From Escherichia coli (GTDB lineage Bacteria > Pseudomonadota > Gammaproteobacteria > Enterobacterales > Enterobacteriaceae), in NCBI RefSeq assembly GCF_009931435.1, contig NZ_CP043414.1: 64,000 nucleotides of DNA; one strand, given 5' to 3'. This document shows positions 31,163-59,065 of the stretch, one piece after another (the first letter of the stretch is position 1; every line of letters begins with the position of its first letter). The notes under the pieces are model-generated. The model worked only from the letters and a program-made list of their open reading frames with translations, ran no database searches and was not told where the DNA came from. The position numbers were made by a program, and so were the translations under genes.

Positions 31163-31164
31163 GG

Positions 31165-36156: not shown

Positions 36157-36159
36157 GGC

Positions 36160-37253
<1,094 letters not shown>

Positions 37254-37696: not shown

Positions 37697-37809
37697 CAGA
37701 TGTCTTCTTGACCGGCTTTGCCTGATTCGACGTGCTCAAGCGCCAGCGCGGTGATTACCCCAAACGAACAGGCAAGAAGCGTTCCCAGAATCCATGCGAA
37801 ATACCACAT
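37696..37809 (-). CDS. cydX: cytochrome bd-I accessory subunit CydX (37 aa)
   Basis: Not in ORF track (<60 aa); minus strand reads MWYFAWILGTLLACSFGVITALALEHVESGKAGQEDI. Confidence 0.9.
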   Translation of the reverse strand: MWYFAWILGTLLACSFGVITALALEHVESGKAGQEDI

Positions 37810-37823
37810 TTTTAGCTCCTTAC

Positions 37824-38978: not shown

Positions 38979-40547
38979 TTAGCGTGCCGGCTGAGTAGTC
39001 GTGGAAGACTGCTCAAAGTGATAGCGACCGGTTTTCAGGCTGCTTGGGCCGAGGCGTGCAAACTTGAACATCAAGAACAATTCTGCCACCAGGAACAGGG
39101 TATACAGGCCACAAATCAGCACCATCGAGAAGATGAGGTCGCCTGCGGTCAGTGACGAGTTCGCTACAGCTGTCGGCAGCACTTCACCGATAGCCCAAGG
39201 TTGGCGACCATATTCAGCCACGAACCAGCCCGCTTCTACAGCAATCCACGGCAACGGAATACCGTACAATGCAGCGCGCAGCAGCCATTTTTTCTCGCCA
39301 ATACGGTTGCGGATGACACTCCAGAAAGAGAGCGCGATGATTGCCAGCAGCAGGAAGCCACACGCCACCATGATACGGAACGCGAAGTACAGCGGCGCTA
39401 CACGTGGAATGGAGTCTTTGGTTGCCTGTTGAATCTGCGCTTCAGTCGCATCCGCCACGTTTGGCGTGTAGCGTTTCAGCAACAGACCGTAACCGAGGTC
39501 TTTCTTCATGCTATTGAACTGGTCACGAACCGCCTGGTCAGTAGAACCAGAACGCAGTTGCTCGAGCAGAGAGTACGCCTTCATCCCGTTACGGATGCGT
39601 TCTTCATGCTGCACCATCAGCTCTTTCAGGCCGATAACCGGGGTATCCACGGAACGCGTTGCAATGATGCCCAGCGCGTAAGGGATCTGGATCGCAAATT
39701 TGTTCGTCTCCTCTTCCTGATCAGGAATGCCGAACAGAGTAAAGGCAGCAGGTGCAGGTTGCGTTTCCCACTCGGCTTCAATAGCAGCCAGTTTGGTTTT
39801 CTGCACGTCGCCCATTTCATAACCGGATTCATCACCCAGAACAATAACAGACAGAACGGCAGCCATACCGAAGCTGGCAGCGATAGCAAAGGAGCGTTTA
39901 GCAAAGGCGAAGTCACGACCTTTCAGCATATACCATGCGCTGATACCGAGGATGAACATCGCGCCAGTCACATAACCAGACGCTACCGTGTGAACGAATT
40001 TCACCTGAGCAACCGGGTTAAGCACCAGCTCGGAGAAGCTCACCATCTCCATACGCATAGTTTCAAAGTTGAAATCGGATGCGATTGGGTTTTGCATCCA
40101 GCCGTTCGCAACCAGAATCCACAGTGCGGACAGGTTTGAACCAAGCGCCACCAGCCAGGTGACACACATATGCTGAACTTTACCCAGACGATCCCAACCG
40201 AAGAAGAACAGACCTACAAAGGTGGATTCGAGGAAGAAGGCCATCAGACCTTCGATTGCCAGCGGCGCGCCGAAAATATCCCCTACATAGTGGGAATAGT
40301 AAGACCAGTTAGTCCCGAACTGGAACTCCATGGTCAGACCGGTTGCCACACCCAGAGCGAAGTTGATACCAAACAACTTGCCCCAGAACTTGGTCATATC
40401 TTTATAAATCTGTTTGCCGGAAAGGACGTAGACCGTTTCCATAATGGCCAGCAGGAACGCCATACCGAGCGTCAGTGGCACAAAAAGGAAGTGGTACATC
40501 GCGGTCAAGGCAAACTGTAAGCGCGACAGTTCGACTATATCTAACAT
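38979..40547 (-). CDS. cydA: cytochrome bd-I ubiquinol oxidase subunit I
   Basis: ORF 523 aa; second Met gives 522 aa. Confidence 0.95.
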
Positions 40548-40883
40548 CATGACTCCTTGCTCATCGCATGAAGACTCCGAGAGTGAACCCCGTTAGAAAG
40601 GGTCACACGCATGCCCCAATACAAAATTATTTGCTCGCCTCTATCGCTGCCTTTTCCTCAAAAGTGGAAAAGACAATGATAAAAAGTTACAAATATGTTA
40701 ATGAATAAACCAAATTGATCCCGTAATTATATTACGCCGCAAAATCCTTACAATAAACAGGTTTTTATTGAGCAAATTTGCATTTTTCGACAGTGATCAA
40801 TTTATAGCGAAATTGTCACGACCTCACCAATTTGATCTACGACAATTTATCGTGTTTTGCAGATTTTTTTCAAGAATTAAAAA

Positions 40884-40897
40884 TTGATTTATATCAA
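40884..40897. promoter_or_regulatory. FNR-type box in cydAB upstream region
   Basis: ttgatttatatcaa is an exact TTGAT-N4-ATCAA palindrome, about 340 bp upstream of cydA. Confidence 0.5.
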
Positions 40898-41272
40898 AAC
40901 CAATCAAATATGTTAATTATGTATAAACCATAGACCATTGGTAATTTTATTGTTAATTTATTGTGAAATATTTATGTAACACAATTATTACAATAAAAAG
41001 ACATAGATAAAAAACCAGTGTTTTATTTAACAGAATCGCCTTATCAACTTTTTATAATACCAATTGATTAGAGTAGCCAATTTGTTGCTATTTTACATAA
41101 CATATTTTTATCAAAGTTAATTGATTGTTGCCTTTATGAGCATCGCCGTAAGACCGCCATGTTATTGTTTCATTTGTAATAATCACCAATAAGTATCGAT
41201 GAGAGAGATATCGCTTAACAGAGGCGACTGTGTCTGCATGAACACAGGCAACTTTCGCCTGATAAACGAAAA

Positions 41273-42295
41273 ATGAGCGATTTTTGCAAGTTAGTTTTTC
41301 TATTGCCGGGTACGCTGAGCGCCTCGCTTGATTACAATGAGGTTGCTGCCATGGGTCTTGATAATATAGGTTCTGTTGTCAATCGCTTCTCTGGTTGGCC
41401 ATCAAATGATCCTCTAAAAACAGATAACGAATCAATGACATCACCCGTGACTGTGCAGGTAATAAAGTTGATTGCCGCCATCCTTGACCCACATCGGATA
41501 GTCGTTGGTATCGATACACTTTATACAACGCAGCGCAAAACATTTACCTCAGAGGGTCAACAACTCATTGAATCAGCATTGAAAACACTTAATGTGATGA
41601 ATTTAAATAACCTGGAAACAGATCGTGATGAGGAGGGTAACTATCTGGCTTTTGGATATAACGTTGACACTCCTGACAGAATAACCGTTTCTGCTTATAA
41701 TGAAAAAAAACCTTTCTGTTATGGCCAATGTCTTTTAATACAGGATGAAGAACCAGATTTATTTAACCTGGTAAAAATTAAAACCTTTGAAGCCAGGCAT
41801 AATTATGTTTCTAAATTGATGAGCGATCCGGAATTTATGTTTAAATTCAGTTATAGCGCCCAACAAAATAGATTAGAACCTCATCTTCTGGTTCCCACTT
41901 ATTTCCCTCTGAAAACAAACCAACCGGTTACGCTAGAGGATGTACTGATACTTTATCGTTTCTTTAAAATGAATGGCGATTTTAATATATTAACATCAGA
42001 TGAATACATGAGTATCATGACACCTCTGATGAAGTGTGAGCGTAGTATCCACGACCATAACAGGTATGTGACGGGCAAAGATGCTCTTCTTCTGGACAAT
42101 CCTCCGTCTGGTAACCAGATATATTTCCATATTTCCCCTGACGAATCAGCAACACTTGTCCTTTATTTTTCAGACAATAACCTTGAATCCTTCGTCTTTG
42201 AAAATGATATTCCGAGCCAGTATCGACATTTCAAAATGTTTACCAATTTAGCACTAGTTATTGATCAGTTAACCGACGCCAATCAAATACTTTAA
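41273..42295 (+). CDS. hypothetical protein, no recognisable family, low-GC gene
   Basis: 340-codon ORF in about 33 percent GC DNA; no Shine-Dalgarno at first ATG; alternative start ATG 41351 has GAGG 9 nt upstream. Confidence 0.6.
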   Translation: MSDFCKLVFLLPGTLSASLDYNEVAAMGLDNIGSVVNRFSGWPSNDPLKTDNESMTSPVTVQVIKLIAAILDPHRIVVGIDTLYTTQRKTFTSEGQQLIESALKTLNVMNLNNLETDRDEEGNYLAFGYNVDTPDRITVSAYNEKKPFCYGQCLLIQDEEPDLFNLVKIKTFEARHNYVSKLMSDPEFMFKFSYSAQQNRLEPHLLVPTYFPLKTNQPVTLEDVLILYRFFKMNGDFNILTSDEYMSIMTPLMKCERSIHDHNRYVTGKDALLLDNPPSGNQIYFHISPDESATLVLYFSDNNLESFVFENDIPSQYRHFKMFTNLALVIDQLTDANQIL

Positions 42296-42374
42296 TTTTC
42301 TATACAGCCCTGTGTAAAATATTGCTAAACAGTGCCCGGGGTTGATTTTTATTCCTCACGGTGATATTTAAATC

Positions 42375-42797
42375 ATGACACCATCTCAGCTCTCTTTTAA
42401 TACTCTTCCTGTCAATGCAACATGCACTTCAGAGATAACAGTAAACACACAAAAATTCTCTGACATCCTCTACTCAGTGGGGTATTCCCTAAAGGATCTG
42501 GCTTATCTGAGCAGATGTCTGGCATCATTACACCCGACACTCGCCAAAAACATTTATGAAACGGAAAATCTCAGCGATCAAAAATTACTTTATATAGATT
42601 GCCGTAGTACAAATGAAATCAAGATAAATATCTTTTTGGGTCAAAAAAGAGAAGAATTAATCGAAATTAGTTCTGATACAGTCATTTTTTCGATACTGTC
42701 TTCATTGATTGACTCAGTTATTTCTGAACATCGACATCAAATCCCCGTTAACGATTCAAATAATTCTGAACTATTTTATGAGGATTATACTGATTAA
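42375..42797 (+). CDS. hypothetical small acidic protein, no recognisable family
   Basis: 140 aa ORF, same strand, 79 bp downstream of the 340 aa ORF, AT-rich, acidic C-terminus (ELFYEDYTD). Confidence 0.55.
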   Translation: MTPSQLSFNTLPVNATCTSEITVNTQKFSDILYSVGYSLKDLAYLSRCLASLHPTLAKNIYETENLSDQKLLYIDCRSTNEIKINIFLGQKREELIEISSDTVIFSILSSLIDSVISEHRHQIPVNDSNNSELFYEDYTD

Positions 42798-43341
42798 ATC
42801 CACTCTGTACGAACCTGTCCTGCATTTATGCCAGAAGTATTAGAATCTTTGCTTAACGTTACTCATACAGTAGCACCTTCATGTGCCTCTCTTTTTTACG
42901 AAAAATCAAAAGAGCTAACAAAAGTCATTCTTCGCATGAATCATTAATTATTTGTTATTTTCAACATTATTTTTACATTAAGCATATATGAATTGCAGTG
43001 AAATTCGACTTAACTTTTATGAAATGCATTTACTCATGGCTAAAGCCACGTCACAAAAATGCAAATTAGAAGTTGATCACAATTATCTCAATCCATCAAA
43101 TCAAGTTAATTTTAAAAATTTAACATCCATGACATTAGTTGACATAACACGCTGAATTAAAATGAGAATTTAAAAAAACACTTTAAACAATCATTTCCCG
43201 AAAGACATTTTGAAAATAGATCAATTGCAACATTACGGTCAGATAAAGACACTCCTCTGATATTAAACCTGTGCCGTTATGAACGGCCATAAATACGACG
43301 TGTGTAACTTAATTTACTCTCTGTCTTACAAAGGATTACCC

Positions 43342-43791
43342 ATGAAGAAAGCAACACTTGTGATTGGCGTTATTGGCGCGGACTGCCATGCAGTAGGCAA
43401 TAAAGTTCTGGACCGCGTTTTTAGCAACCATGACTTCAGAGTCATTAATCTGGGCGTAATGGTCAGCCAGGACGAATATATTGATGCTGCCATTGAAACT
43501 GGCGCTGACGCGATTGTCGTCTCCTCTATCTATGGGCATGGCGATATCGATTGTCTGGGCATGCGCGAACGCTGCATCGAGCGTGGGCTGGGTAACATCC
43601 TGCTCTATGTGGGCGGTAACCTGGTGGTCGGAAAACATGACTTCGCTGACGTGGAAACCAAGTTCAAAGAGATGGGATTTGATCGCGTCTTTTCCCCAAG
43701 TCATGACTTAGAAGATGTTTGTCAGCTGATGGCCCACGATATCAACCAACGTCATGACGTTGATACTCGCATTCTTGAAGAGGCAATCTGA
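43342..43791 (+). CDS. glutamate mutase sigma subunit (B12-binding subunit)
   Basis: ORF 43279-43791; start placed at ATG 43342 after AAAGGA; [18 protein letters not shown] resembles the clostridial MutS/GlmS cobalamin-binding motif. Confidence 0.88.
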
Positions 43792-45179
43792 TGCAAATCG
43801 TCTCTGTCGATATTGGATCGACGTGGACCAAAGCAGCCCTCTTCACCCGGGAGGGGGACGCGTTAACGTTGGTTAACCACGTTCTGACCCCAACCACCAC
43901 CCATCATCTGGCGAAGGGGTTTTTCTCCAGCCTGGACCAGGTGTTAAACGTAGATGATGCCCTCCCCCTGTTAAACAGTGGTGAGGTTGCATTGAAGTAT
44001 TCCTCCTCTGCCAAAGGTGGGCTGGCGGTTGCCGCAATGGGAATAGTGCCTTCTATCACTCTGGAAACCGCGAAAGTAACCGCTCACTCTGCGGGTGCTA
44101 AAATTGCGCAATATTACGCCTACAAGCTGAACCGCCGTGATATCCAGGCACTGGAAGAAACGCAGCCCGATATTCTCTTGTTCACCGGCGGCACCGACGG
44201 CGGAGAAGAAAGCTACGGACTGAATAACGCCCGTGTGCTGGCAGAATCCAAACTCGACTGCGCCATTATTTATGCCGGAAACCGGGATATTCAGGACAAG
44301 GTGCAGGAGATCCTCGGGCATAAAGACCTGACCATCGTCGACAACGTTCTGCCCGATCTTGACCATCCGAACCCTTTAGCTGCACGCCAGGCTATCTGCG
44401 ACATATTCCTTAAACGCATCGTTAAAGGGAAAGGGCTGGATGTCATTGTTGATAAAACAGGCGAAGAACCAATGCCGACACCATGGACGGTCTTTGAACT
44501 GGTTAAGGCAATCAGTAACGTCGATCACAGCTGGAAAGAGTTCATGCTGATCGACATGGGCGGCGCAACCACCGATGTCTATTCCGCCTGTGCCAACACG
44601 CTCTCGCCCGACACTGTTTTACATGGCGTACCGGAACCCTTCGTAAAACGGACGGTGGAAGGCGATCTGGGAATGCGCGTCTCGGCAATGGTGGTTGGTG
44701 AAAGTGCGAAAGAGTTAGTCAGTGTGAATTTTGCTCAGCAACCCGCACAGTTGGACGCTTTTTATCATTACCTCCGTCATCTAGTCGCTCATCCCGACTA
44801 CTTACCCGCGAATGCAGATGAAAAATATTTCGATACCGTCCTGGCCGGACTGTGTGTGGGTTATGCCACCGAAAGACATGCGGGCACCAAAAAAGAGGTC
44901 TGCACCTGCGTCGGCAATGTCGATTTACAGATGGGACGTGACCTGACAACCGTGCGTAAAGTCGTGGGTTCCGGCGGATGGCTCTCGCGTGCCAGTCAGT
45001 TCGATATGCATCACTGGTTGAAATACCGCGAGTTAAACGACGACGGTAAACGCATTCTCTTACCGACCGAATTTGAATATTACCGCGATTCCCGGGGGCT
45101 ATTACCACTGCTGGCAAACGTCGCCAGAGTCGATCCGCTGGCCGCCGCGCGCACCAGTATTCAATGCTTAACCCTATAA
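43791..45179 (+). CDS. glutamate mutase accessory protein MutL/GlmL-like
   Basis: 462 aa ORF starting [18 protein letters not shown] (ASKHA-like ATPase N-terminus); 1-nt overlap with upstream gene. Confidence 0.85.
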   Translation: MQIVSVDIGSTWTKAALFTREGDALTLVNHVLTPTTTHHLAKGFFSSLDQVLNVDDALPLLNSGEVALKYSSSAKGGLAVAAMGIVPSITLETAKVTAHSAGAKIAQYYAYKLNRRDIQALEETQPDILLFTGGTDGGEESYGLNNARVLAESKLDCAIIYAGNRDIQDKVQEILGHKDLTIVDNVLPDLDHPNPLAARQAICDIFLKRIVKGKGLDVIVDKTGEEPMPTPWTVFELVKAISNVDHSWKEFMLIDMGGATTDVYSACANTLSPDTVLHGVPEPFVKRTVEGDLGMRVSAMVVGESAKELVSVNFAQQPAQLDAFYHYLRHLVAHPDYLPANADEKYFDTVLAGLCVGYATERHAGTKKEVCTCVGNVDLQMGRDLTTVRKVVGSGGWLSRASQFDMHHWLKYRELNDDGKRILLPTEFEYYRDSRGLLPLLANVARVDPLAAARTSIQCLTL

Positions 45180-45197
45180 CAATTAAGGCTGCAATCA

Positions 45198-46643
45198 ATG
45201 GAACTTCGAAATAAGAAATTAACCCATGACGAATTCATGACCGAGCGGCAACAGGTATTGAAAACCTGGGAAACCGGCAAGGATGTTGAAAACTTTGAAG
45301 ATGGCGTTAAATACCAACAAACCATTCCTGAGCATAAACGCTTCTCTCTTGCCCTGCTGAAAGCAGACAAGGAAGGTAAAACCCTTAGCCAACCGCGCGC
45401 AGGCGTGGCGCTGATGGACGAACACATCGAACTACTGAAAACACTACAAGAAGAGTGCGATCTGCTGCCGAGCACTATCGATGCATATACCCGTCTGAAT
45501 CGGTACGAAGAAGCTGCTGTAGGGATTAAAAAATCCATCGAAGCCGGAACCTCTAAACTGAACGGTTTACCGGTAGTTAACCACGGCGTCGCAGCTTGCC
45601 GTCGCCTCACCGAAACTCTGCAAAAACCGCTACAGATCCGCCACGGCACGCCAGATGCGCGTCTGCTGGCTGAAATCTCGATGGCCAGCGGCTTTACCAG
45701 TTATGAAGGCGGCGGCATTTCCTACAATATTCCGTATGCCAAGCGCGTAACGCTGGAAAAATCGATCCGCGACTGGCAGTACTGCGATCGTTTAATGGGG
45801 ATGTACGAAGAACACGGGATCCGCATCAACCGCGAACCGTTTGGCCCACTAACGGGTACGCTGATCCCGCCGTTTATCTCGCACTCTATCGCAATAATCG
45901 AAGGCTTGCTGGCACTGGAACAGGGTGTGAAGTCTATCACCGTTGGTTATGGTCAGGTCGGTAGCCTGACGCAGGATGTTGCGGCGATCCAGTCTCTGCG
46001 GGAACTTGCACACGAATATTTTCAGAGCTATGGCTATACCGACTACGAATTAAGTACCGTGTTTCACCAGTGGATGGGAGGCTTTCCGGAGGACGAATCG
46101 AAAGCGTTCGCCATTATCTCCTGGGGTGCTGCAGTCGCGGGGATGTCTGGTGCTACCAAAGTCATCACCAAAAGTCCGCACGAAGCCTGGGGCATCCCGA
46201 CTGCTGCTGCCAACATTCAGGGGCTAAAAGCCTCCCGCCAGATGCTCAACATGGTCAACGAGCAGAAATTCCCGCCGTGCCCGGCGGTTGAACTAGAAAT
46301 TGAACTGATTAAGAGCGAGGTTCGCGCTGTACTGAACAAAGTGTTCGAACTGGGTAATGGTGATATTGCGCGCGGTACGGTGCTGGCATTTGAAGCGGGC
46401 GTACTGGATGTGCCGTTTGCACCAGCCGCCTGCAACGCGGGCAAAATTCTTCCGGTCCGTGACAACACCGGCGCGATACGCGTACTGGAAGCCGGAGCCG
46501 TTCCATTGCCAAAAGATATTCTCGACCTCCACCACGATTACGTTGCGGAACGCGCGCGCTTTGAAGGACGCCAACCGACATTCCAGATGGTTGTAGATGA
46601 CATCAATGCTGTATCCCACAGTAAATTAATAGGAAGACCATAA
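45198..46643 (+). CDS. glutamate mutase epsilon (catalytic) subunit
   Basis: 481 aa ORF, N-terminus MELRNKKLTHDEFMTERQQVLKTW resembles clostridial GlmE/MutE. Confidence 0.88.
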   Translation: MELRNKKLTHDEFMTERQQVLKTWETGKDVENFEDGVKYQQTIPEHKRFSLALLKADKEGKTLSQPRAGVALMDEHIELLKTLQEECDLLPSTIDAYTRLNRYEEAAVGIKKSIEAGTSKLNGLPVVNHGVAACRRLTETLQKPLQIRHGTPDARLLAEISMASGFTSYEGGGISYNIPYAKRVTLEKSIRDWQYCDRLMGMYEEHGIRINREPFGPLTGTLIPPFISHSIAIIEGLLALEQGVKSITVGYGQVGSLTQDVAAIQSLRELAHEYFQSYGYTDYELSTVFHQWMGGFPEDESKAFAIISWGAAVAGMSGATKVITKSPHEAWGIPTAAANIQGLKASRQMLNMVNEQKFPPCPAVELEIELIKSEVRAVLNKVFELGNGDIARGTVLAFEAGVLDVPFAPAACNAGKILPVRDNTGAIRVLEAGAVPLPKDILDLHHDYVAERARFEGRQPTFQMVVDDINAVSHSKLIGRP

Positions 46644-47884
46644 TGAAAATAAAACAGGCCCTTTTTACCGCTGGCTACTCCTCATTCTATTTCGATGATC
46701 AGCAGGCGATAAAAAACGGAGCGGGTCACGACGGCTTTTTCTACACCGGAGAGCCGGTAACACAGGGGTTTAACGCCGTACGTCAGGCCGGGGAGTGCGT
46801 TTCGGTTCAGTTGATTCTGGAAAACGGTGCGGTCGCCGTAGGTGACTGTGCTGCCGTACAGTATTCCGGGGCAGGCGGTCGCGATCCACTGTTCCTCGCA
46901 GAGCACTTTATTCCGTTCCTCAACGACCATATCAAGCCATTACTGGTAGGCCGCGATGTGGATGCTTTCCTGCCGAATGCCCGTTTCTTCGACAAATTGC
47001 GTATTGACGGCAACTTGCTGCATACCGCCGTACGTTACGGATTATCACAGGCGCTGCTTGATGCTACCGCGCTGGCAACCGGCCGTCTGAAAACTGAAGT
47101 GGTCTGTGATGAATGGCAGTTGCCACGCGTGGCGGAATCCATTCCATTATTTGGTCAGAGCGGCGACGATCGATATATCGCCGTCGATAAGATGATCCTT
47201 AAGGGCATCGACGTGCTGCCCCATGCGCTGATTAATAACGTCGAAGAGAAACTGGGCTTTAAAGGTGAAAAACTGCGCGAATATGTCCGCTGGTTGTCAG
47301 ATCGCATTCTGAGCAAGCGCACCAGCGCACGCTACCACCCTACCCTGCACATCGATGTATACGGCACTATCGGTCTGATCTTCGATATGGATCCGCTTCG
47401 CTGTGCGCAATACATCGCCAGTCTGGAAAAAGAGGCGCAAGGCCTGCCGCTCTACATTGAGGGGCCGGTCGATGCCGGTAACAAGCCCGATCAAATCCGC
47501 CTGCTGACCGCGATTACCAAAGAGCTGACGCGCCTCGGTTCCGGCGTGAAAATCGTGGCCGATGAATGGTGTAACACCTACCAGGATATTGTTGATTTCA
47601 CTGATGCCGCCAGTTGCCACATGGTGCAAATCAAAACCCCGGATCTGGGCAGTATTCACAACATCGTCGATGCAGTTCTTTATTGCAACAGCCACAGCAT
47701 GGAAGCGTACCAGGGCGGCACCTGCAATGAAACTGATGTCAGTGCCCGCACCTGTGTCCACGTCGCCCTTGCTGCTCGCCCCATGCGTATGCTGGTAAAA
47801 CCAGGGATGGGCTTTGACGAAGGCCTCGATATCGTCTTCAACGAAATGAATCGTACTATCGCGCTGTTGCAGGCTAAGGATTAA
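46643..47884 (+). CDS. 3-methylaspartate ammonia-lyase
   Basis: 413 aa ORF, N-terminus MKIKQALFTAGYSSFYFDDQQAIKNGAGHDGFFYTGEPVTQGF is a close match to remembered methylaspartase (enolase superfamily). Confidence 0.88.
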   Translation: MKIKQALFTAGYSSFYFDDQQAIKNGAGHDGFFYTGEPVTQGFNAVRQAGECVSVQLILENGAVAVGDCAAVQYSGAGGRDPLFLAEHFIPFLNDHIKPLLVGRDVDAFLPNARFFDKLRIDGNLLHTAVRYGLSQALLDATALATGRLKTEVVCDEWQLPRVAESIPLFGQSGDDRYIAVDKMILKGIDVLPHALINNVEEKLGFKGEKLREYVRWLSDRILSKRTSARYHPTLHIDVYGTIGLIFDMDPLRCAQYIASLEKEAQGLPLYIEGPVDAGNKPDQIRLLTAITKELTRLGSGVKIVADEWCNTYQDIVDFTDAASCHMVQIKTPDLGSIHNIVDAVLYCNSHSMEAYQGGTCNETDVSARTCVHVALAARPMRMLVKPGMGFDEGLDIVFNEMNRTIALLQAKD

Positions 47885-47887
47885 CAA

Positions 47888-49258
47888 ATGGCTCGTTCTT
47901 TTAAAGTCTTATCGCCAACGGCAATCCTCGGGTATGGATTCCCGGAAGAGAGCTTCCGCAAAGCGATGGCAGAATCGCCCGATCTGATCGCCGTTGATGC
48001 AGGCTCTTCCGATCCTGGCCCCCACTACCTCGGGGCGGGCAAACCGTTTACCGATCGCGCAGGGGTCAAGCGCGATCTGCGCTATATGATCACCGCAGGC
48101 GTGCAAAATAATATACCGGTGGTGATCGGAACGGCCGGCGGTTCTGGTGCCGCTCCACACCTGGAGTGGTGCCGAGAAATAATTCATGAGATTGCCCGGG
48201 AAGAGCACCTCGCGTTCTCGATGGCGCTGATCCCGGCAGACGTTGACAAAGCCATCGTCCACCAGGCGCTGGATAACGGCAAAATCACAGCGCTGGATTT
48301 TGTCCCGCCGTTAACCCACGACGCGATTGACGAAAGTACGTATATCGTCGCGCAAATGGGCATCGAACCCTTCCAGCAGGCGCTGAAAGAAGGCGCGCAA
48401 GTGGTGCTGGGCGGGCGCGCTTACGACCCGGCCTGCTTTGCTGCGCTACCGATCATGCAAGGCTTTGATGAAGGTCTGGCGCTGCATTGTGGGAAAATCC
48501 TTGAATGCGCGGCAATCGCCGCAACGCCCGGCTCAGGCTCTGACTGTGCGATGGGCATCATTGATGACAACGGCTTTACGCTGAAGACATTTAATCCGAA
48601 GCGTAAATTTACCGAAACGTCAGCGGCTGCACACACACTGTATGAGAAATCCGATCCCTACTTCCTGCCAGGACCTGGCGGCGTGTTGAACCTGAAAGGC
48701 TGCACATTTAAAGCGGTCAATGACGGCGAAGTGTACGTCAGCGGTTCTAAGCATGAAGAAACGCCGTATGCCCTGAAACTGGAAGGTGCGCGGCGGGTGG
48801 GCTTCCGCTGTCTGACCATCGCAGGAACGCGCGACCCGATCATGATCGCCGGGATCGATAAAATCATCGATGAAGTCAAAACCAGCGTTTCGCGTAACCT
48901 GTCGCTCGACGATGACAGCATTCGCATCAATTTCCACCTGTACGGCAAAAACGGGGTGATGGGCGACCATGAACCGATGCAAACTGCCGGGCATGAGCTG
49001 GGGATTGTCCTTGATGTAGTTGCACCGACCCAGGATATTGCCAATAGCGTTTGCTCGCTGGTGCGCTCTACCATGCTGCACTACGGCTATGAAAACCGCA
49101 TCGCTACCGCAGGCAACCTGGCGTTCCCGTTCTCCCCTTCTGATATCCAGGGCGGGCCGGTATACGAATTTTCCATATATCACCTGATTGAAGCCAACGA
49201 CGCTCTGCGTTTTGATTTCCATATTGAACAGGTGACGCCAGAAGGAGTTCAGGCATGA
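47888..49258 (+). CDS. conserved protein of unknown function, tentatively DUF1446 / AtuA-like
   Basis: 456 aa ORF 3 nt after the lyase gene; family assignment from memory of an LIAVDAGSSDPGP-type N-terminal pattern. Confidence 0.7.
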   Translation: MARSFKVLSPTAILGYGFPEESFRKAMAESPDLIAVDAGSSDPGPHYLGAGKPFTDRAGVKRDLRYMITAGVQNNIPVVIGTAGGSGAAPHLEWCREIIHEIAREEHLAFSMALIPADVDKAIVHQALDNGKITALDFVPPLTHDAIDESTYIVAQMGIEPFQQALKEGAQVVLGGRAYDPACFAALPIMQGFDEGLALHCGKILECAAIAATPGSGSDCAMGIIDDNGFTLKTFNPKRKFTETSAAAHTLYEKSDPYFLPGPGGVLNLKGCTFKAVNDGEVYVSGSKHEETPYALKLEGARRVGFRCLTIAGTRDPIMIAGIDKIIDEVKTSVSRNLSLDDDSIRINFHLYGKNGVMGDHEPMQTAGHELGIVLDVVAPTQDIANSVCSLVRSTMLHYGYENRIATAGNLAFPFSPSDIQGGPVYEFSIYHLIEANDALRFDFHIEQVTPEGVQA

Positions 49259-49572
49259 AACAGTCAATTGTCTCACTGGCGCAAGTCATTCGTTCGAAAA
49301 ATGCCGGACCTTACGAACTGGTTTTAGATATTTTATTTAAAACGAAAGAAAACTATGAGCGAGTAAAATCATCAGGGCAATTAACCCCAGAACTGATTGC
49401 GCGCTTATATCATGTTGAACCTGACTTTATTCATCGTATTGTCTGGTTTGATCCTTCTAACGCAGTAAAAATTGTCATGCCACGAGATATTATCTCCGGG
49501 AATGTAGGTGACAATGATGTCTATGGCGCACAGCAACATGCACCTTTATTAAATATGAGTTTCGATTTGTAA
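49255..49572 (+). CDS. small conserved protein, tentatively DUF4387-like partner
   Basis: 105 aa ORF overlapping the preceding gene by 4 nt (ATGA coupling). Confidence 0.7.
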   Translation: MKQSIVSLAQVIRSKNAGPYELVLDILFKTKENYERVKSSGQLTPELIARLYHVEPDFIHRIVWFDPSNAVKIVMPRDIISGNVGDNDVYGAQQHAPLLNMSFDL

Positions 49573-49658
49573 AAATCCGAACACTTTTAGCCAACTGACA
49601 TCCCGTCACTTATTGCAGCTCAACACTTCAGCTATTTGTAAGGTTGTTATAGCAGGTA

Positions 49659-49684
49659 GATGCCTGAATCTCTATTCAGGCATC
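49659..49684 (+). other. intra-operon stem-loop (possible attenuator or processing site)
   Basis: 10-bp stem gatgcctgaa / ttcaggcatc with 6-nt loop; no clean U-tract. Confidence 0.3.
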
Positions 49685-49732
49685 CACTTCTCCTGATTCT
49701 GATTTATCGCCGTGCACCTGATGGAGGAAAAA

Positions 49733-51013
49733 ATGAAGAAAATAAGTTTAACCACGATGATTCTTTTGGCGCTGGTACTTGGAATGATTATCGGCGTAGT
49801 GCTCAATAACACTGCTTCACCGGAAACAGCAAAACTCTATGCGCAAGAAATATCGATATTCACGACGATTTTCTTACGACTGATAAAAATGATTATCGCT
49901 CCGTTAGTGGTCTCTACCCTGGTGGTAGGTATTGCTAAAATGGGCGATGCCAAAGCCCTTGGTCGTATTTTTTCTAAAACACTCTTTTTATTTATTTGCG
50001 CCTCATTGCTGTCAATTGCCTTAGGCTTGATAACGGTAAATTTCTTCATGCCAGGCACAGGAATTAATTTTGTTGCACACGGTGCCGAAACCACCGGAGT
50101 GGTCGCGTCAGAACCCTTTACACTAAAAGTATTTATTTCGCATGCTTTCCCCACCAGCATTGTCGATGCCATGGCGCACAATGAAATTTTGCAAATCGTG
50201 GTGTTCTCAATTTTCCTCGGCTGTAGCCTGACGGCGATTGGTGAGAAAGGCAGCGCCATCGTTCACGCCTTAGATTCGCTGGCACATGCCATGTTAAAGC
50301 TCACTGGCTACGTCATGCTCTTCGCTCCCCTGACCGTATTCGCCGCTATTTCAGCATTGATTGCTGAACGAGGACTGGCAGTTATGGTGAGCGCCGGGAT
50401 CTTTATGGGTGAATTTTATTTCACCATGTTATTACTTTGGGTGCTGCTTATCGGTCTGGCCATCGTTTATGTCGGCCCCTGCATCAGACGCCTGACCCGC
50501 GCCCTTTCAGAACCCGCCCTGCTGGCATTTACCACATCCAGTTCTGAAGCTGCTTTTCCGGGAACGCTTGAAAAACTGGAGCAATTTGGCGTTTCCCCCA
50601 AAATTGCCAGCTTTGTCTTACCCATTGGCTACTCATTTAATCTCGTTGGATCAATGGCCTACTGCTCCTTCGCCACAGTTTTCATCGCCCAGGCCTGCAA
50701 TATCCATTTATCCATCGGTGAGCAAATCACCATGCTGTTGATCCTGATGTTGACCTCGAAAGGAATGGCTGGCGTACCACGCGCCTCAATGGTGGTTATC
50801 GCCGCCACGCTCAACCAGTTCAATATTCCGGAAGCGGGGCTGATCTTGCTGATGGGCGTTGATCCGTTCCTTGATATGGGGCGTTCCGCGACAAACGTCA
50901 TGAGCAACGCAATGGGCGCTGCGATGGTGAGTCGGTGGGAAGGCGAACATTTCGGCGAGGGCTGTCGGGGTAAAGCATTAAAACCCAATGAATCGAACGT
51001 TGCTCTGCCCTGA
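49733..51013 (+). CDS. dicarboxylate/amino acid:cation symporter (DAACS, GltP/DctA family)
   Basis: ORF 49712-51013; start placed at ATG 49733 after GGAGG; polytopic membrane protein. Confidence 0.85.
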   Translation: MKKISLTTMILLALVLGMIIGVVLNNTASPETAKLYAQEISIFTTIFLRLIKMIIAPLVVSTLVVGIAKMGDAKALGRIFSKTLFLFICASLLSIALGLITVNFFMPGTGINFVAHGAETTGVVASEPFTLKVFISHAFPTSIVDAMAHNEILQIVVFSIFLGCSLTAIGEKGSAIVHALDSLAHAMLKLTGYVMLFAPLTVFAAISALIAERGLAVMVSAGIFMGEFYFTMLLLWVLLIGLAIVYVGPCIRRLTRALSEPALLAFTTSSSEAAFPGTLEKLEQFGVSPKIASFVLPIGYSFNLVGSMAYCSFATVFIAQACNIHLSIGEQITMLLILMLTSKGMAGVPRASMVVIAATLNQFNIPEAGLILLMGVDPFLDMGRSATNVMSNAMGAAMVSRWEGEHFGEGCRGKALKPNESNVALP

Positions 51014-51120
51014 GGGGGATCTTAAGCAATCAGAAGCCAATGACTACGCATTTTTATAAGCCGGATCATGAAGTTAGACGGCAATTAAGTAACACTAACG
51101 TTTAAGGTGAAAAGTGAAAT

Positions 51121-52773
51121 ATGTCCAAACCATTTATCTGGCAAGAACCGTTTCTACAAAATAAAGACGGTACAGAATATACATTAATTAGCGATCAACA
51201 TATTACAGTAACGGAATTAGACGGCGAAGAAGTAATAAAAATCGCTCCTGAAGCATTAACGCTGCTTGCCCGGCAGGCATTTTATGAAGCCTCTTTTTTC
51301 TTACGTTCCGCTCATTTGCAACAGGTCGCCAGCATTCTTAACGATCCGCAGGCCAGCAGTAATGATAAATACGTTGCGTTGCAGTTATTACGTAATGCTG
51401 AAGTCTCAGCAAAAGGGGTATTACCCAACTGTCAGGATACCGGCACCGCAACTATTGTTGCCAGTAAAGGGCAACAGATATGGACGGGAGGTAACGACGC
51501 TGAAGCCTTAAGCAAAGGCATTTACAGTACTTTCCAGGAAAATAATCTGCGCTTTTCACAAAATGCGCCGCTGGATATGTATACCGAAGTCAATACGCAA
51601 ACCAATCTTCCGGCGCAGATTGATATCAGCGCTGTCGCTGGTAATGAGTACCATTTTCTCTGTGTTAATAAAGGGGGCGGCTCCGCCAATAAAGCCGCAC
51701 TTTATCAGGAAACCAAATCCTTATTGCAACCAGAAAAACTGACCGCATTTTTAATCGACAAAATGAAATCGTTGGGCACGGCCGCCTGCCCGCCCTACCA
51801 CATCGCCTTTGTCGTCGGAGGGCTTTCAGCCGATCAAACCTTAAAAGTTGCCAAGCTGGCCTCTACGAAATATTACGACAATTTGCCCACCAGCGGAAAC
51901 GAGCAGGGACAAGCATTCCGTGATATTGAGCTGGAAAAAGCGTTGCTCGAGGCCAGTCAGCAATTTGGTATTGGTGCGCAATTTGGGGGTAAATATTTCG
52001 CTCATGATATTCGCGTCATTCGTCTGCCGCGTCACGGTGGCTCTTGCCCGATAGCTATGGCGCTCTCCTGTTCTGCCGATCGCAATATCAAAGCAAAAAT
52101 TAACAAGCATGGTATCTGGCTGGAAAAACTCGAACACAATCCGGGGCAATATATTCCAGCCTCACTGCGGGAAGAAAATCACGCGCAACATGTACAGCTG
52201 GATCTAAACCGTCCGTTGCGTGACGTGATGCAGGATCTCGCCAGATTACCGGTAGGTACCCGCGTGTCGTTAAGTGGTCCCATCGTAGTGGCGCGCGATA
52301 TCGCCCACGCAAAAATAAAAGCGCGGCTGGATAGCGGCGAATCGATGCCGGATTACCTGAAGCATCATATTGTCTATTACGCTGGCCCGGCGAAAACACC
52401 GGAGAACATGGCCTGCGGTTCACTGGGTCCAACCACGGGCGGTCGAATGGACGGTTATGTCGAAACCTTCCAGGCGGCTGGCGGCAGTCTGGTAATGTTA
52501 TCGAAAGGTAACCGCAGCCAGCAGGTCACCGATGCCTGTCACAAACATGCAGGCTTCAATCTGGGAAGTATTGGCGGTGCAGCTGCGTTACTGGCGCAAG
52601 AATATGTCAAAAGTCTGCGTTGCCTGGAATACCCGGAGCTGGGTATGGAGGCGGTGTGGATGATGGAAGTGGAAAATCTGCCCGCATTCATCCTGGTTGA
52701 TGATAAAGGCAATAATTTCTTTAGCCAGTTTGAGCAGCAACACCGCTGCGCCAGTTGCCCTGCGGGACATTAA
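51121..52773 (+). CDS. fumD: class I (Fe-S) fumarate hydratase family protein, mesaconase candidate
   Basis: 550 aa ORF, FumA/FumB length and fold; symbol from memory of the O157:H7 cluster. Confidence 0.8.
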
Positions 52774-52782
52774 GGAAAATGA

Positions 52783-53385
52783 ATGGAAGCGCGAATTTCA
52801 ACTGAACGGCATGTGCAGCGCCAACAGAAATTGAAGGAACAGGTCGATACGCGCGTCGCGGCGGCGATAGAGAAAAAAGGGATCTTGATTGTTTTCACCG
52901 GCAACGGCAAAGGGAAATCCACTGCCGCGTTTGGTACTGTGACGCGCGCGGTGGGTCATGGCAAAACGGTGGGGGTTGCGCAGTACATCAAGGGGCAATG
53001 GGACAACGGCGAATACAACCTTCTCCAGCCGCTGGGGGTTGAGTTTCATATTATGGGAACCGGTTTTACCTGGGAGACTCAGAACCGGCAAGCGGATATC
53101 GACGCGGCGAAAGAGGTCTGGTCGGAAAGCAAACGGATGCTGGCTGACAAGCGTTACGACTTAGTGGTGCTTGATGAGCTGACCTATATGCTGGCTTACC
53201 ATTATCTGGACACCGAAGAAGTGATCACTTCTCTGCAAAACCGCCCGGCACAACAAAGTGTCATTGTCACCGGACGCAGTTGCCACAGTCAGATATTAAA
53301 AATGGCGGATACGGTCAGCGAAATCCGCCCCGTCAAACATGCTTTTGATAACGGCATTCAGGCGCAGCCGGGTATCGACTGGTAA
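52783..53385 (+). CDS. cob(I)alamin adenosyltransferase, CobA/BtuR family paralog
   Basis: 200 aa ORF with P-loop IVFTGNGKGKSTAAFG; close to remembered K-12 BtuR. Confidence 0.85.
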   Translation: MEARISTERHVQRQQKLKEQVDTRVAAAIEKKGILIVFTGNGKGKSTAAFGTVTRAVGHGKTVGVAQYIKGQWDNGEYNLLQPLGVEFHIMGTGFTWETQNRQADIDAAKEVWSESKRMLADKRYDLVVLDELTYMLAYHYLDTEEVITSLQNRPAQQSVIVTGRSCHSQILKMADTVSEIRPVKHAFDNGIQAQPGIDW

Positions 53386-53418
53386 TAACTGCGCCTGGCA
53401 TCCAGCCAGGCGCAGGTT

Positions 53419-54324
53419 TTACATCTCCTGCGGTACGACCGATTTCGCCAGCAACCATTCACGAAATTGCTGCAAGTGCGGCGAGTCAGACTTCTCTTCC
53501 TGCCACGTCATAATAAAACGATTACCGGTACGAATAGGCACATCACAGGGAATCACCATATCGCCACTATCCAAATCATGTTGAATAGCGAACCGTGGTA
53601 ACAGCGCCACGCCGAGATTAGAGCGCACGGCGGCAATCAGCATTGAAAGCAAATCGAAACGTGGTCCGTTATTGACCAGCGGACTGCTAACGCCAGATAA
53701 AGCAAACCACTCTTCCCAGCCAGTAATACGGGTGCTTTGATGCAGAAGTGGTAACTCAGTAAGCAGTTCTGCCACTGACAGTTTTTGATCGGACATTGCA
53801 AGCAAACTGCCGCTGCATACCGGCAAAATCTCCTCTTCAAAGAGATATTCTACTTCCGCCCAGGGCGCGCAAAAATTTTCGCGCATAATGACAGCATCGT
53901 ACTCCCGATTAAGAAAATCGCCGTTATTAGCTAAAGAATGAATATTAACAATAATATCGGGATGTAACTTTGTGAATTCATGTAAATTTGGGATTAACCA
54001 GTGGGTACTAAACGTAGGATTAACGGCAAGTTCAATAACCTGAACCGTAGGCTGCCAGGTCATAATCGTATTGGTATCGCGCTCCAATTTATTTAATGTT
54101 TCTTTTACTATCCCCAGGTAATACTTCCCTGCATCATTAAGAAAAATGCGTTTTTTAGAGTGTGAAAATAACGGAGTATGTAAAAATTCCTCCAACGCAC
54201 TTACTTGTCTGAATACTGCACTTTGGGTTAACGCTAACTCCTCTGCCGCTCTGGTATAACTTTCATGACGTGCGACGACCTCAAAAGTCACCAGCAGCTC
54301 CGTTTTAGGTATTTTTCCTCGCAT
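53419..54324 (-). CDS. LysR-family transcriptional regulator
   Basis: 301 aa ORF, N-terminal HTH (ESYTRAAEELALTQSAVFRQVSALEEFL). Confidence 0.85.
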   Translation of the reverse strand: MRGKIPKTELLVTFEVVARHESYTRAAEELALTQSAVFRQVSALEEFLHTPLFSHSKKRIFLNDAGKYYLGIVKETLNKLERDTNTIMTWQPTVQVIELAVNPTFSTHWLIPNLHEFTKLHPDIIVNIHSLANNGDFLNREYDAVIMRENFCAPWAEVEYLFEEEILPVCSGSLLAMSDQKLSVAELLTELPLLHQSTRITGWEEWFALSGVSSPLVNNGPRFDLLSMLIAAVRSNLGVALLPRFAIQHDLDSGDMVIPCDVPIRTGNRFIMTWQEEKSDSPHLQQFREWLLAKSVVPQEM

Positions 54325-54480
54325 AATGCCGTCCCTTAAAAATAGTTTAAACCATCAAAAATACATTACTTATTACGAAGTAATGGTAACCAAAGCAGCA
54401 ATAAATAATTTATAAGAATCATGATTAACATTTATAACCCAGTAAGCCTGGCGTGACAATTATCTTAATCAGATAATAAT

Positions 54481-54509
54481 AATCCGAAAAGCACAGCACC
54501 TTTCGGATT
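54481..54509 (-). terminator. hairpin downstream of the HAL-like gene (weak terminator candidate)
   Basis: Stem atccgaaa / tttcggat with 11-nt loop, followed on the minus strand by ATTATTATTAT. Confidence 0.35.
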
Positions 54510-54594
54510 ATCAGGAATTACATTAAGTGAAAATTATTAAATTGATATCATTTATCATATCTGTGGATATAATGATAAACAATCAACATAGATT

Positions 54595-56265
54595 TTATTT
54601 TTGATTTATAGCATATCCCTCTAAGAATTTTTGCGATGCTTCAATATCCGGGGTAAAGACCCGATCCTGACTGACAAATGGCACGACTTGACGATAAGCG
54701 GTGAACATCGCTTTTGTTGATTTGCCTAACGCCAGCTGTGGATCGGCTTGCAAGCGCAAATCAATCGCCTGGGCAGAATGCATCAGTTCAATGCCATAAA
54801 TGACATTCAAATTATCAACAACCTGTTTCAATCTTCTCGCCGCGTGGTCGTTATTGGCACCCGTATCTTCAATGCCTCCGGCTACCGGTTGAATATCGAA
54901 AGAAACCGGGTTAGCGAGATCGACATTTTCCGCATGCAGCGCAACAAACGGGATATGTAATGAACCGAAGCCATGACCTTTATTACCTGCTGCCGACAGG
55001 AAGCGTGACAAACCGGTAAAGTGATCATCTTCAAGATGCAGCGAGCGGCGCATACTGTTATGTGAAACATGCACTAACGCCACGGTCAGACGCTGGGTGG
55101 CAAGCGCAACCGGTAACGATTCGAAATTCGCCGTCGGGAAGATCCCACCGCTGATTGCCCCATCTTTAACAAAATATTGCGCGACCTGACTGGAGTCCTG
55201 ATACGCTTTGTCTGCATTCAGCACGGTTGCCGGGTTGTCATCGGAACTGTTGATCTGCACGGTAATGGTATCTTCAGCATCGCGCAACGCGCGCATTGCC
55301 TCAGAAATGGTATACACCGTCGTTCTGAACGATAACGGATCCTGCAATGCACGTTTGTCATCCTTATGCCATAAATAAGAACCACTTAACGCATCGCGAA
55401 TCTCTTTAGCGGAATCAGCCAACTGCGGGAAAGGACGCACGGCGATCGACTGCGGCAGTACCGGCGCGACATTGCCATTCAACGCTTCGAGGCTCATGGC
55501 GAAAACCACCGGACTGACATTCAGCACCTGGCGTGCCGACCGTACCGCTTCAATTGCATATGCTGTTCCGACACTGTTGTTCGACAAAATCGCCAGCATA
55601 TCTTTACCCTGCGGGACCAGTGGTTTAAGCCCCACTTTCACCAGCGCATCGCCACCACTCATTTCCACGCCATTAACCCGCGCTTTCCACTCGCCCATCA
55701 TCACCAGACCAACGTGTGAAGCGAGCATAATATCCGCTGCGCCGATACTTCCCCGCGCCGGAATTAACGGCGTAACGCCTCGATTAATAAACTCGGCATA
55801 CAACTCGGCAATATAAGGCTGCGCGCCGGTTTGCCCATGCAACATAGTATTTAAACGTAACACCATTGAGAGACGGGCAAGATAATCCGGCAACATCGGA
55901 CCGACGCCCGCAGAATGGGCGCGCAGCGCGGCAGCATTAAATTTTTTCGATGCGTCAATCACCTCAGGCGTTAAATTTCCTTTGGCATCAAATATGGGCT
56001 GATCTTTATTTAGCCCCACGCCCACGGTTAAGCCATAAACAGGCGTACCTGAATGCGCGGCAGTCATCACCAGATCATAACTTTTTTCCATGCGCTCCAT
56101 GGCGTTCGACGCGATTTTGACGCCGTTATCACCTAATGCAATTGACCAGGCCTGGTCAATAGAGAGATGTTCGCCATCCAGCGTAATGGTTGATTTTGCC
56201 ATCGCGATGGAGCAAACGCTCCAGAGCACAACGGTGACAGTGACTCTGCGTATCAATCCTTTCAT
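54595..56265 (-). CDS. aromatic amino acid lyase (HAL/PAL) fold protein lacking the MIO triad, signal-peptide-like N-terminus
   Basis: 556 aa ORF; conserved GSVGASGDLAPLAH block reads GSIGAADIMLASH (codons checked at 55729-55752); N-terminus MKGLIRRVTVTVVLWSVCSIAMA; AAGGA 6 nt upstream of ATG 56265. Confidence 0.8.
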   Translation of the reverse strand: MKGLIRRVTVTVVLWSVCSIAMAKSTITLDGEHLSIDQAWSIALGDNGVKIASNAMERMEKSYDLVMTAAHSGTPVYGLTVGVGLNKDQPIFDAKGNLTPEVIDASKKFNAAALRAHSAGVGPMLPDYLARLSMVLRLNTMLHGQTGAQPYIAELYAEFINRGVTPLIPARGSIGAADIMLASHVGLVMMGEWKARVNGVEMSGGDALVKVGLKPLVPQGKDMLAILSNNSVGTAYAIEAVRSARQVLNVSPVVFAMSLEALNGNVAPVLPQSIAVRPFPQLADSAKEIRDALSGSYLWHKDDKRALQDPLSFRTTVYTISEAMRALRDAEDTITVQINSSDDNPATVLNADKAYQDSSQVAQYFVKDGAISGGIFPTANFESLPVALATQRLTVALVHVSHNSMRRSLHLEDDHFTGLSRFLSAAGNKGHGFGSLHIPFVALHAENVDLANPVSFDIQPVAGGIEDTGANNDHAARRLKQVVDNLNVIYGIELMHSAQAIDLRLQADPQLALGKSTKAMFTAYRQVVPFVSQDRVFTPDIEASQKFLEGYAINQK

Positions 56266-56315
56266 TGTGTTTCCTTATTTTGATGAGTTTAACAACGGAT
56301 TACTGCAACAACCTC

Positions 56316-59064: not shown

Positions 59065-59065
59065 A

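Follow-up and report, generated by a model that had tools for sequence, protein, structure and literature searches.

A methylaspartate pathway operon on a chromosomal island of Escherichia coli and the hut-like module that adjoins it

The subject of this analysis is a window of 64,000 nucleotides of Escherichia coli DNA (RefSeq assembly GCF_009931435.1, contig NZ_CP043414.1), and within it an operon at positions 43342-53385 whose products belong to the cobalamin-dependent methylaspartate pathway of glutamate degradation. An initial annotation, made from the sequence, had described nine co-directional genes here, and the open reading frame (ORF) listing of the window bears this out, with nine + strand ORFs over 43342-53385 in the same order and at the same coordinates. 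Protein families were assigned by scoring against NCBIfam models and comparing the result with the curated cut-offs of those models (in bits), and homologues were scored against the sequences of the Protein Data Bank (PDB). The genes, by position in the window, are as follows.

43342-43791, + strand: glmS, glutamate (methylaspartate) mutase S subunit, B12-binding (NF002612, 251.9 bits, cut-off 110; PDB 1I9C_A, E = 2.8e-49)

43791-45179, + strand: glmL (mutL), glutamate mutase accessory or reactivating protein (NF040745, 506.6 bits, cut-off 475; TIGR01319, 883 bits)

45198-46643, + strand: glmE, glutamate mutase E (catalytic) subunit (TIGR01503, 865 bits, cut-off 390; PDB 6H9E_B and 1CB7_B, E ~1e-190)

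46643-47884, + strand: mal, 3-methylaspartate ammonia-lyase (TIGR01502, 544 bits, cut-off 286; PDB 1KKO_A, 898 bits over all 413 residues)

47888-49258, + strand: cmlA, putative citramalate lyase large subunit (AtuA/DUF1446 family), 456 residues (PDB 9ERQ/9EVF chain A, 972 bits, full length)

49255-49572, + strand: cmlB, putative citramalate lyase small subunit (DUF4387), 105 residues (PDB 9ERQ_B, E = 5e-57, residues 1-104)

49733-51013, + strand: DAACS-family dicarboxylate/amino acid:cation symporter (DctA, 312 bits, cut-off 513; GltP, 302 bits, cut-off 638)

51121-52773, + strand: fumD, class I (Fe-S) fumarase homologue (NF011921, 1275.8 bits, cut-off 1060; under the cut-offs of the FumA and FumB models)

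52783-53385, + strand: cobO/cobA-type ATP:cob(I)alamin adenosyltransferase (TIGR00708, 245 bits, cut-off 168; NF004637, 295 bits, cut-off 185)

In the order glmS to cobO the intergenic spacings are -1, 18, -1, 3, -4, 160, 107, and 9 nt; the first six genes, glmS to cmlB, overlap or are separated by no more than 18 nt, with cmlB overlapping cmlA by 4 nt and glmL placed between the genes of the two mutase subunits, glmS and glmE. A start of the glmS frame is possible at 43279, but an AAAGGA ribosome-binding site precedes the ATG at 43342, and the homology with clostridial GlmS begins at the Met of that ATG. The ATG of the transporter gene is preceded by GGAGG. None of the nine genes contains an internal stop. 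Six of the products score above a curated NCBIfam cut-off, namely GlmS, GlmL, GlmE, methylaspartate ammonia-lyase (MAL), the class I fumarase (NF011921), and CobA, and for these the assignments made in the initial annotation hold. The methylaspartate operon of the window is confirmed as intact and real.

The residues on which catalysis and cofactor binding depend are also present. GlmS carries Asp14-x-His16-x-x-Gly19 of the base-off/His-on cobalamin-binding (DxHxxG) motif. In GlmE, Arg67, Arg99, Arg148, Glu170, and Tyr180 align with Arg66, Arg100, Arg149, Glu171, and Tyr181 of the Clostridium cochlearium enzyme, which we take to be its substrate-binding arginine triad together with Glu171 and Tyr181. 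MAL conserves Gln172, His194, Asp238, Glu273, Asp307, Gln329, Lys331, Thr360, Cys361, and Leu384 under the same numbering as in 1KCZ and 1KKO; Lys331 and His194 are presumably the catalytic pair, and Asp238, Glu273, and Asp307 the Mg ligands. The initial annotation had pointed to a loss of catalytic residues from the E subunit of the mutase or from the lyase as what would speak against the pathway, and on alignment those of GlmE and MAL prove to be kept throughout. Conserved cysteines in the class I fumarase of Leishmania (5L2R) are matched in FumD by Cys104, Cys223, and Cys317, which are assumed here to be the cluster ligands, and the adenosyltransferase CobO has the P-loop GNGKGKST.

A methylaspartate cluster in E. 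coli has been in print since 2015, and its confirmation here adds little to that. The cluster was described in E. coli O157:H7 and other Enterobacteriaceae, where the extra fumarase was named FumD and the recombinant enzyme was found to prefer mesaconate over fumarate 2- to 3-fold; the authors counted the cluster in 26.5% of E. coli genomes and in 90.6% of those of O157:H7 (Kronen & Berg, PLoS One 2015; PMC4682846). The precedent named in the initial annotation, an O157:H7 cluster with a mesaconase-type fumarase, is therefore real, and the DNA of O157:H7 strain EDL933 is 98% identical. The published cluster and that of the window share the gene order glmS, glmL, glmE, mal, DUF1446, DUF4387, gltP-like, fumD, cobA, and LysR as well as the site between cydA and sucD; in the earlier work the transporter was labeled GltP, the adenosyltransferase CobA, and the regulator LTTR (PMC4682846).

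The nine proteins are 98.2-100% identical to their EDL933 orthologues (GlmS 98.7%, GlmL 98.3%, CmlB 100%, FumD 98.2%) and equal to them in length, and window 33926-54732 is collinear with EDL933 at 96.8% identity, with the same insertion site and gene order. The 10.6-kb stretch 43000-53600 occurs at 95-99% identity in 1117 of 5426 complete E. coli genomes, EDL933 included, and every gene of the cluster is named in RefSeq genomes by the Prokaryotic Genome Annotation Pipeline (PGAP). The window itself is a segment of the E. coli chromosome that is collinear with K-12 from bioF to cydA. On the cydA side the K-12 homology ends at window position 40922, 373 bp upstream of cydA, and MG1655 has mngR-mngA-mngB between sucD/sdhX and cydA. 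The cluster is thus accessory relative to K-12, as first annotated.

The conversion of glutamate to pyruvate and acetate predicted for the window is the one carried out by the clostridial cluster known from C. tetanomorphum, C. tetani, and C. cochlearium, and GlmS, GlmE, and MAL of the window are homologous to the clostridial enzymes with the same active-site residues. The two systems part company in the later steps and in their control. The mesaconase of the window is a single-chain FumA-like protein, whereas that of the clostridia is the two-subunit MesAB; the putative citramalate lyase of the window is CmlAB, in contrast to the clostridial CitDEF-type acyl-carrier complex with CitC, CitX, and CitG; and the regulator is of the LysR type rather than the GntR type.

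In the 2015 description the DUF1446 gene after mal had no assigned function, and the fate of citramalate was called unclear (PMC4682846). The initial annotation likewise listed two proteins of unknown function. This label no longer applies, as the two products match chains A and B of PDB 9ERQ, where they are identified as citramalate lyase CmlA and CmlB; the window can thus be given an assignment at the point that the 2015 work left unexplained. Entries 9ERQ and 9EVF, released 2025-10-22, are titled 'Citramalate lyase - AMPPNP - citramalate complex'. Their chain A bears the depositor names 'Acyclic terpene utilization AtuA family protein' and 'Citramalate lyase, subunit A (cmlA)', and chain B of 9ERQ is named 'Citramalate lyase, subunit B (cmlB)'. 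The CmlA of the window is ~90-93% identical to 9ERQ chain A, with homology over the full length and the same fold. Since the 9ERQ crystal holds an ATP analogue, a nucleotide probably takes part in the CmlAB reaction. The Cml of Raoultella planticola has been used in vivo to convert citramalate to pyruvate and acetate (bioRxiv 10.64898/2026.01.16.699985); the window proteins are the E. coli orthologues of R. planticola/9ERQ Cml, known from sequence.

Given these matches, the route encoded by the operon would end at pyruvate and acetate and not at citramalate. The path from glutamate through 3-methylaspartate and mesaconate to citramalate, as initially annotated, stands as a series of encoded steps; citramalate as its end point does not, because CmlAB would extend it. 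The description of the pathway as complete fits better than could have been appreciated at the time. No homologue of citD, citE, or citF, the genes of the acyl-carrier citramalate lyase, is found among the island genes, and the lyase step appears to be covered instead by CmlAB, which is not homologous to CitDEF. The name AtuA, which PGAP gives to CmlA, was considered as a clue to function and set aside. CmlA shares the Pfam family PF07287 with AtuA of Pseudomonas, a protein of acyclic terpene utilization, at a distance (E = 7.4e-19, 68 bits), and unlike its namesake it lies in a context of glutamate mutase and methylaspartase genes, with a DUF4387 partner and no atu genes.

Gene order in other organisms gives the CmlAB assignment support that is independent of the structures. 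A scan for CmlA with one genome per species returned 61 loci, which were then searched by tblastn with all of the island proteins. The order glmS-glmL-glmE-mal-cmlA-cmlB is found in Klebsiella, Citrobacter, Salmonella, Enterobacter, Yersinia, Morganella, Hafnia, and Budvicia, and again in Aromatoleum, Azoarcus, Telmatospirillum, Clostridiales, Dictyoglomaceae, and Desulfotomaculum, while one Bacillota locus has the same six genes with cmlA-cmlB ahead of mal. In every locus with enough flanking sequence, cmlB follows cmlA. The Dictyoglomaceae locus continues into genes for a two-subunit class I fumarase and contains no CitDEF genes. These six genes are a conserved core across several phyla.

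Taken together, the region is very probably the enterobacterial methylaspartate (mesaconate) pathway cluster, the same island as in O157:H7, with a route that leads from glutamate to pyruvate and acetate. Glutamate would enter through the DAACS symporter, presumed to be an importer of glutamate or of a C5-dicarboxylate. CobO, judged by its family membership, would adenosylate salvaged cob(I)alamin to adenosylcobalamin, and GlmS and GlmE, kept active by GlmL, would use this to convert (S)-glutamate to (2S,3S)-3-methylaspartate, as their equivalog scores and conserved residues suggest. MAL, with its conserved residues, would then release ammonia to form mesaconate; the methylaspartate ammonia-lyase of O157:H7 works in vivo (bioRxiv 10.1101/2025.11.12.688011). 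FumD would hydrate mesaconate to (S)-citramalate, a reaction shown biochemically for FumD of O157:H7 strain ATCC 700728 (PMC4682846), with the window protein at 98.2% identity to that of EDL933. Finally, CmlA and CmlB would cleave citramalate to pyruvate and acetate.

Several observations weigh against this account, and a number of them concern the expression of the operon and the DNA ahead of it, which is entered as one feature.

42798-43341, + strand: AT-rich region upstream of glmS, 544 bp, 32% GC, the presumed promoter or regulatory region

Under the conditions tried, an O157:H7 strain had no methylaspartase activity, no citramalate lyase activity, and no anaerobic growth on glutamate (PMC4682846). 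No + strand sigma-70-like site is present in 42798-43341, and no clear FNR or CRP site lies upstream of glmS, the best FNR-like and CRP-like sequences having 2 mismatches each. No cobalamin riboswitch or other Rfam family was found in 40000-64000 at gathering thresholds. The transporter reaches neither the GltP nor the DctA cut-off, and family scores therefore do not settle its substrate. As to the last step, no primary paper on CmlAB or on PDB 9ERQ/9EVF was found in the searchable literature, and the putative assignment draws on the depositors' molecule names, the title of the structure, and the use of the enzyme in one preprint.

The findings on expression bear most directly on an explanation in which the enzymes are functional and the cluster serves some purpose other than energy-yielding glutamate fermentation, being induced in a particular niche and silent under ordinary conditions. 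Such purposes could include the release of ammonia from glutamate, the production or consumption of mesaconate or citramalate as effectors, or the catabolism of glutamate supplied by a hut-like module. The absence of expression in the O157:H7 strain, along with that of methylaspartase activity and of growth on glutamate, speaks for it, and the authors of that study themselves suggested pathogenicity-linked induction or the secretion of citramalate (PMC4682846). It also accords with the AT-rich region ahead of glmS, in which no promoter is recognizable, and with the history of the island, which originally held a hut-like module (described below) that would supply glutamate. Against it, a route that CmlAB would make complete as far as central metabolites argues against citramalate as the end product, and the six-gene core is kept in anaerobes that plausibly ferment glutamate. 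This explanation is accordingly possible, though unlikely.

Under the preferred reading, expression of the operon is probably tightly restricted: a LysR-type regulator gene adjoins it, and no inducing condition emerged from the 2015 study. The prediction is that the operon stays silent in ordinary growth until a particular signal is present, which agrees with the negative expression results of that study.

The weak family scores of the transporter raise a different alternative, namely that the real substrate is an imported C5 compound (3-methylaspartate, mesaconate, or citramalate) brought in by the DAACS carrier, with the mutase running mainly in reverse or in a minor role. The carrier is under the GltP cut-off and as near to DctA-type dicarboxylate carriers as to GltP, and the reactions of FumD and MAL are reversible. 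Yet glmS, glmL, and glmE head the operon, which also has a dedicated adenosyltransferase, a costly arrangement if the mutase were dispensable, and the mutase genes belong to the conserved core in all phyla sampled. We regard this alternative as improbable.

The most doubtful of the alternatives denies citramalate lyase activity to the AtuA-family/DUF4387 pair of E. coli, so that the route would end at citramalate. It could appeal to the lack of a primary publication on CmlAB and to the missing citramalate lyase activity in cell extracts (PMC4682846), but the cluster was unexpressed in those cells. The close identity of CmlA to a crystallized citramalate lyase that was solved with citramalate bound, the in vivo use of the R. 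planticola orthologue for citramalate cleavage (bioRxiv 10.64898/2026.01.16.699985), and the position of the cmlA-cmlB pair immediately beside mal across distant phyla all argue against it and make it very improbable. The favored interpretation thus remains one in which CmlAB completes the route and takes it on to pyruvate and acetate, and under it citramalate need not be secreted.

Beyond the region ahead of glmS, three further features within and just after the operon may bear on its control.

49658-49683, + strand: perfect 11-bp hairpin, GATGCCTGAAT-CTCT-ATTCAGGCATC, with a 4-nt loop, in the gap between cmlB and the transporter gene; no T run follows it

53389-53415, no strand assigned: strong G+C-rich hairpin between the convergent cobO and LysR genes, with an 11-bp stem of which 9 pairs are G-C

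53419-54324, - strand: gene for a LysR-family (GcvA-like) regulator (best model NF008352, GcvA subfamily, 221 bits, under the cut-off of 288)

Promoter-like sites over 40500-54700 number fewer than expected from shuffled sequence. The first hairpin lies in a stretch (49640-49715) that folds at -21 kcal/mol (z = -2.0) and may be an element of RNA processing or stability or a protein-binding palindrome. The 160-nt gap that holds it and the 107-nt gap before fumD allow for internal promoters or RNA processing. The second hairpin folds at -28.1 kcal/mol (z = -6.2), with none of 200 shuffles folding as well, and it is the operon terminator, probably acting in both directions. The LysR gene runs toward the operon, a convergent arrangement that is unusual in its family. 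In most Enterobacterales loci it is kept next to cobO or fumD; elsewhere it stands divergently upstream of glmS (Aromatoleum) or beside a separate fumD upstream of glmS (Yersinia). It is a candidate regulator of the island.

On the cydA side, the accessory DNA ahead of the operon is entered as a further feature.

40923-43341, no strand assigned: left end of the accessory island relative to K-12, comprising two low-GC ORFs and the upstream region of glmS

The two ORFs, both on the + strand, occupy 41273-42295 (340 residues) and 42375-42797 (140 residues) in DNA of 36-37% GC (41000-42999), and neither has a match in NCBIfam, Pfam, PADLOC, or PHROG. As EDL933 is annotated with hypothetical proteins at the same positions, the two ORFs travel with the island.

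Two contigs from metagenome-assembled genomes labeled Collinsella sp. and Citrobacter sp. encode island proteins mostly 97-100% identical to those of the window, although in the Citrobacter-labeled genome the two hypothetical ORFs are only 83-88% identical; both contigs are most likely misbinned Escherichia sequence. With regard to the backbone, window 1-31104 (bioF to the lysine/valine tRNA cluster) is 96.2% identical to K-12 and 31087-38005 (tol-pal-cyd) is 98.6% identical, and the closest complete genomes, at 99.2-99.8%, are 2020CK-00188, MFDS1022581, and R32_14_1F. This pattern and the small number of close genomes indicate that the window comes from an uncommon E. coli lineage.

On the far side of the LysR gene lies a second group of catabolic genes, which belongs to the same island and is not part of the operon.

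54595-62435, - strand: hut-like module, beyond the LysR gene and downstream of the operon

The initial annotation had placed this module upstream of the methylaspartate genes; it is in fact downstream and on the opposite strand. In the direction of transcription its genes are hutU, a gene for an NCS1-family permease, hutD, hutI, hutG, and a gene for a lyase of the histidine ammonia-lyase (HAL) family (556 residues, 54595-56265), whose product would act first in the pathway. HutU scores 934 bits (cut-off 375) and is under the cut-offs of both thiourocanate hydratase models, HutI scores 452 bits (cut-off 298), and HutG 288.5 bits (cut-off 229). Further on, an rtcB-family gene (63094-64000, + strand) has a 1-nt insertion near 63689 relative to the 465-residue gene of 2020CK-00188, which shifts the frame and leaves an ORF of 222 residues that stops at 63762; either the gene is a pseudogene, or the extra base is an error of sequencing.

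The lyase is not a true histidine ammonia-lyase (HutH). It reaches 277 bits against the TIGR01225 cut-off of 539 and lacks the motif for the 4-methylideneimidazole-5-one (MIO) group, reading GSIGAADIM at that position without the Ala-Ser-Gly of HALs. Its best PDB match is the ergothionase of Treponema denticola (6S7J, 295 bits), whereas true HALs score ~168 bits. The first 23 residues (MKGLIRRVTVTVVLWSVCSIAMA, then KST) resemble a Sec signal, and the homology with ergothionase begins just after them. Hydrophobic N-termini of this kind are common to the aligned Gram-negative homologues of the lyase and absent from the Enterococcus protein.

Two preprints report that periplasmic MIO-less lyases of Shewanella release trimethylamine from histidine betaine, ergothioneine, or N-pi-methyl histidine betaine. 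The characterized trimethylammonia-lyases are Swoo_3913 (histidine betaine), SO_3057 (ergothionase), and SO_3299 (N-pi-methyl histidine betaine). According to these preprints, the residue at the position of ergothionase Lys384, which binds the ergothioneine thiolate, decides whether the sulfur compound is accepted. The window lyase, which has the HAL-family fold, is ~55% identical to Shewanella members of the family, a value that refers to the aligned sequences. It differs from the characterized enzymes in context, its gene lying beside those for cytoplasmic HutU, HutI, and HutG and an NCS1 permease, whereas the Shewanella enzymes occur with a periplasmic urocanate-type reductase. It also differs at the Lys384 position, where the characterized enzymes have Lys, Asn, or Gln and the window protein has Ile (SLHIP).

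Ergothionase was rejected as an identity for the window lyase on the same ground: GSLHIPF stands where the ergothionase has GTIQKTF, with Ile in place of Lys (the PDB chain index may be offset by one residue, but no Lys is nearby). The motif at this position divides the family. AIQK is found in proteins of E. albertii, Citrobacter werkmanii, Hafnia, Leminorella, Sutterella, and members from Shewanella, and these are likely exported ergothionases; SLH[IV]P is found in the window protein, E. marmotae, two metagenomic proteins, and Enterococcus. The nearest non-Escherichia lyases with the latter motif have gene neighborhoods that are not hut-like, and an attempt to derive the substrate from them failed. 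As a weak guess, the substrate of the window lyase may be a sulfur-free betaine such as hercynine, which would yield urocanate for HutU.

The hut-like module is present in 143 of the 5426 genomes, a count that stays the same when the LysR gene is added to the query. In ~840 further genomes the match to the hut query is confined to its first 133 nt, which correspond to the last 45 codons of the lyase gene. The short form of the island, in which the LysR gene is followed directly by sucD, is not that of the window and is found in O157:H7 and ~970 other genomes. The stretch from the LysR gene to sucD is occupied in the window by the hut-like operon and the rtcB-family gene, of which EDL933 has only scars. 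In EDL933 this stretch is 666 bp long and contains four pieces of long-island genes. Two derive from the lyase gene, namely its 3′ portion (window 54598-54732) and 62 nt of internal sequence (window 55075-55136, 87% identity), and two from the rtcB-family gene, namely 57 nt of internal sequence and the 3′ end. The scars are located at 20728-20850 of the EDL933 locus. They indicate that the short O157-type island is a deletion derivative and that the long form is ancestral within E. coli.

The initial annotation had suggested that the two modules could form one route, and this remains plausible. The EDL933 scars lend the link some support, in that the modules were once one island in E. coli. 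Desulfotomaculum copahuensis provides an independent case of histidine-degradation genes directly beside a methylaspartate/CmlAB cluster, its locus (907-14259) reading FtcD, HutI, FchA, glmS, glmL, glmE, mal, cmlA, cmlB, a sigma-54 activator, and HutP. The presence there of FtcD, HutI, and FchA before glmS and of HutP after the cluster also supports a functional link to some degree, although this locus uses the formimidoyltransferase branch and the module of the window uses HutG. Some support comes as well from the classical histidine fermentation of C. tetanomorphum, since it runs through glutamate. On the other side, no hut-like module adjoins the cluster in other Enterobacterales among the 61 loci, which counts against a general link; apart from the hut-glm neighborhood of Desulfotomaculum, the linkage is confined to Escherichia.

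Tentatively, and with rather little confidence, the long form of the island may be viewed as a single catabolic unit, more than 20 kb in length, that would degrade a dietary histidine betaine. The exported MIO-less lyase would split hercynine or a sulfur-free relative into trimethylamine and urocanate in the periplasm, the NCS1 permease would import the urocanate, and HutU, HutI, and HutG would convert it to glutamate and formamide. The methylaspartate/CmlAB operon would then take the glutamate to pyruvate, acetate, and ammonia, and the LysR regulator that lies between the two modules may coordinate both.

What is new here is the assignment of two unknown genes to CmlAB, the position and nature of the hut-like module, and the ancestral long island. 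The operon itself is a textbook-type pathway in an unexpected host, and more of the novelty lies in the neighboring lyase module. Although the cluster is carried by about a fifth of E. coli strains, including most O157:H7, conditions that induce it are unreported. If the two modules do act as a unit, most carriers of the island, O157:H7 among them, are deletion derivatives that have lost the feeder module, and this loss could explain why an inducing condition is missing in O157:H7. The feeder module in turn suggests urocanate, hercynine, and related betaines as candidate inducers. If confirmed, a feeder that releases trimethylamine would be a further enterobacterial source of trimethylamine in the gut.

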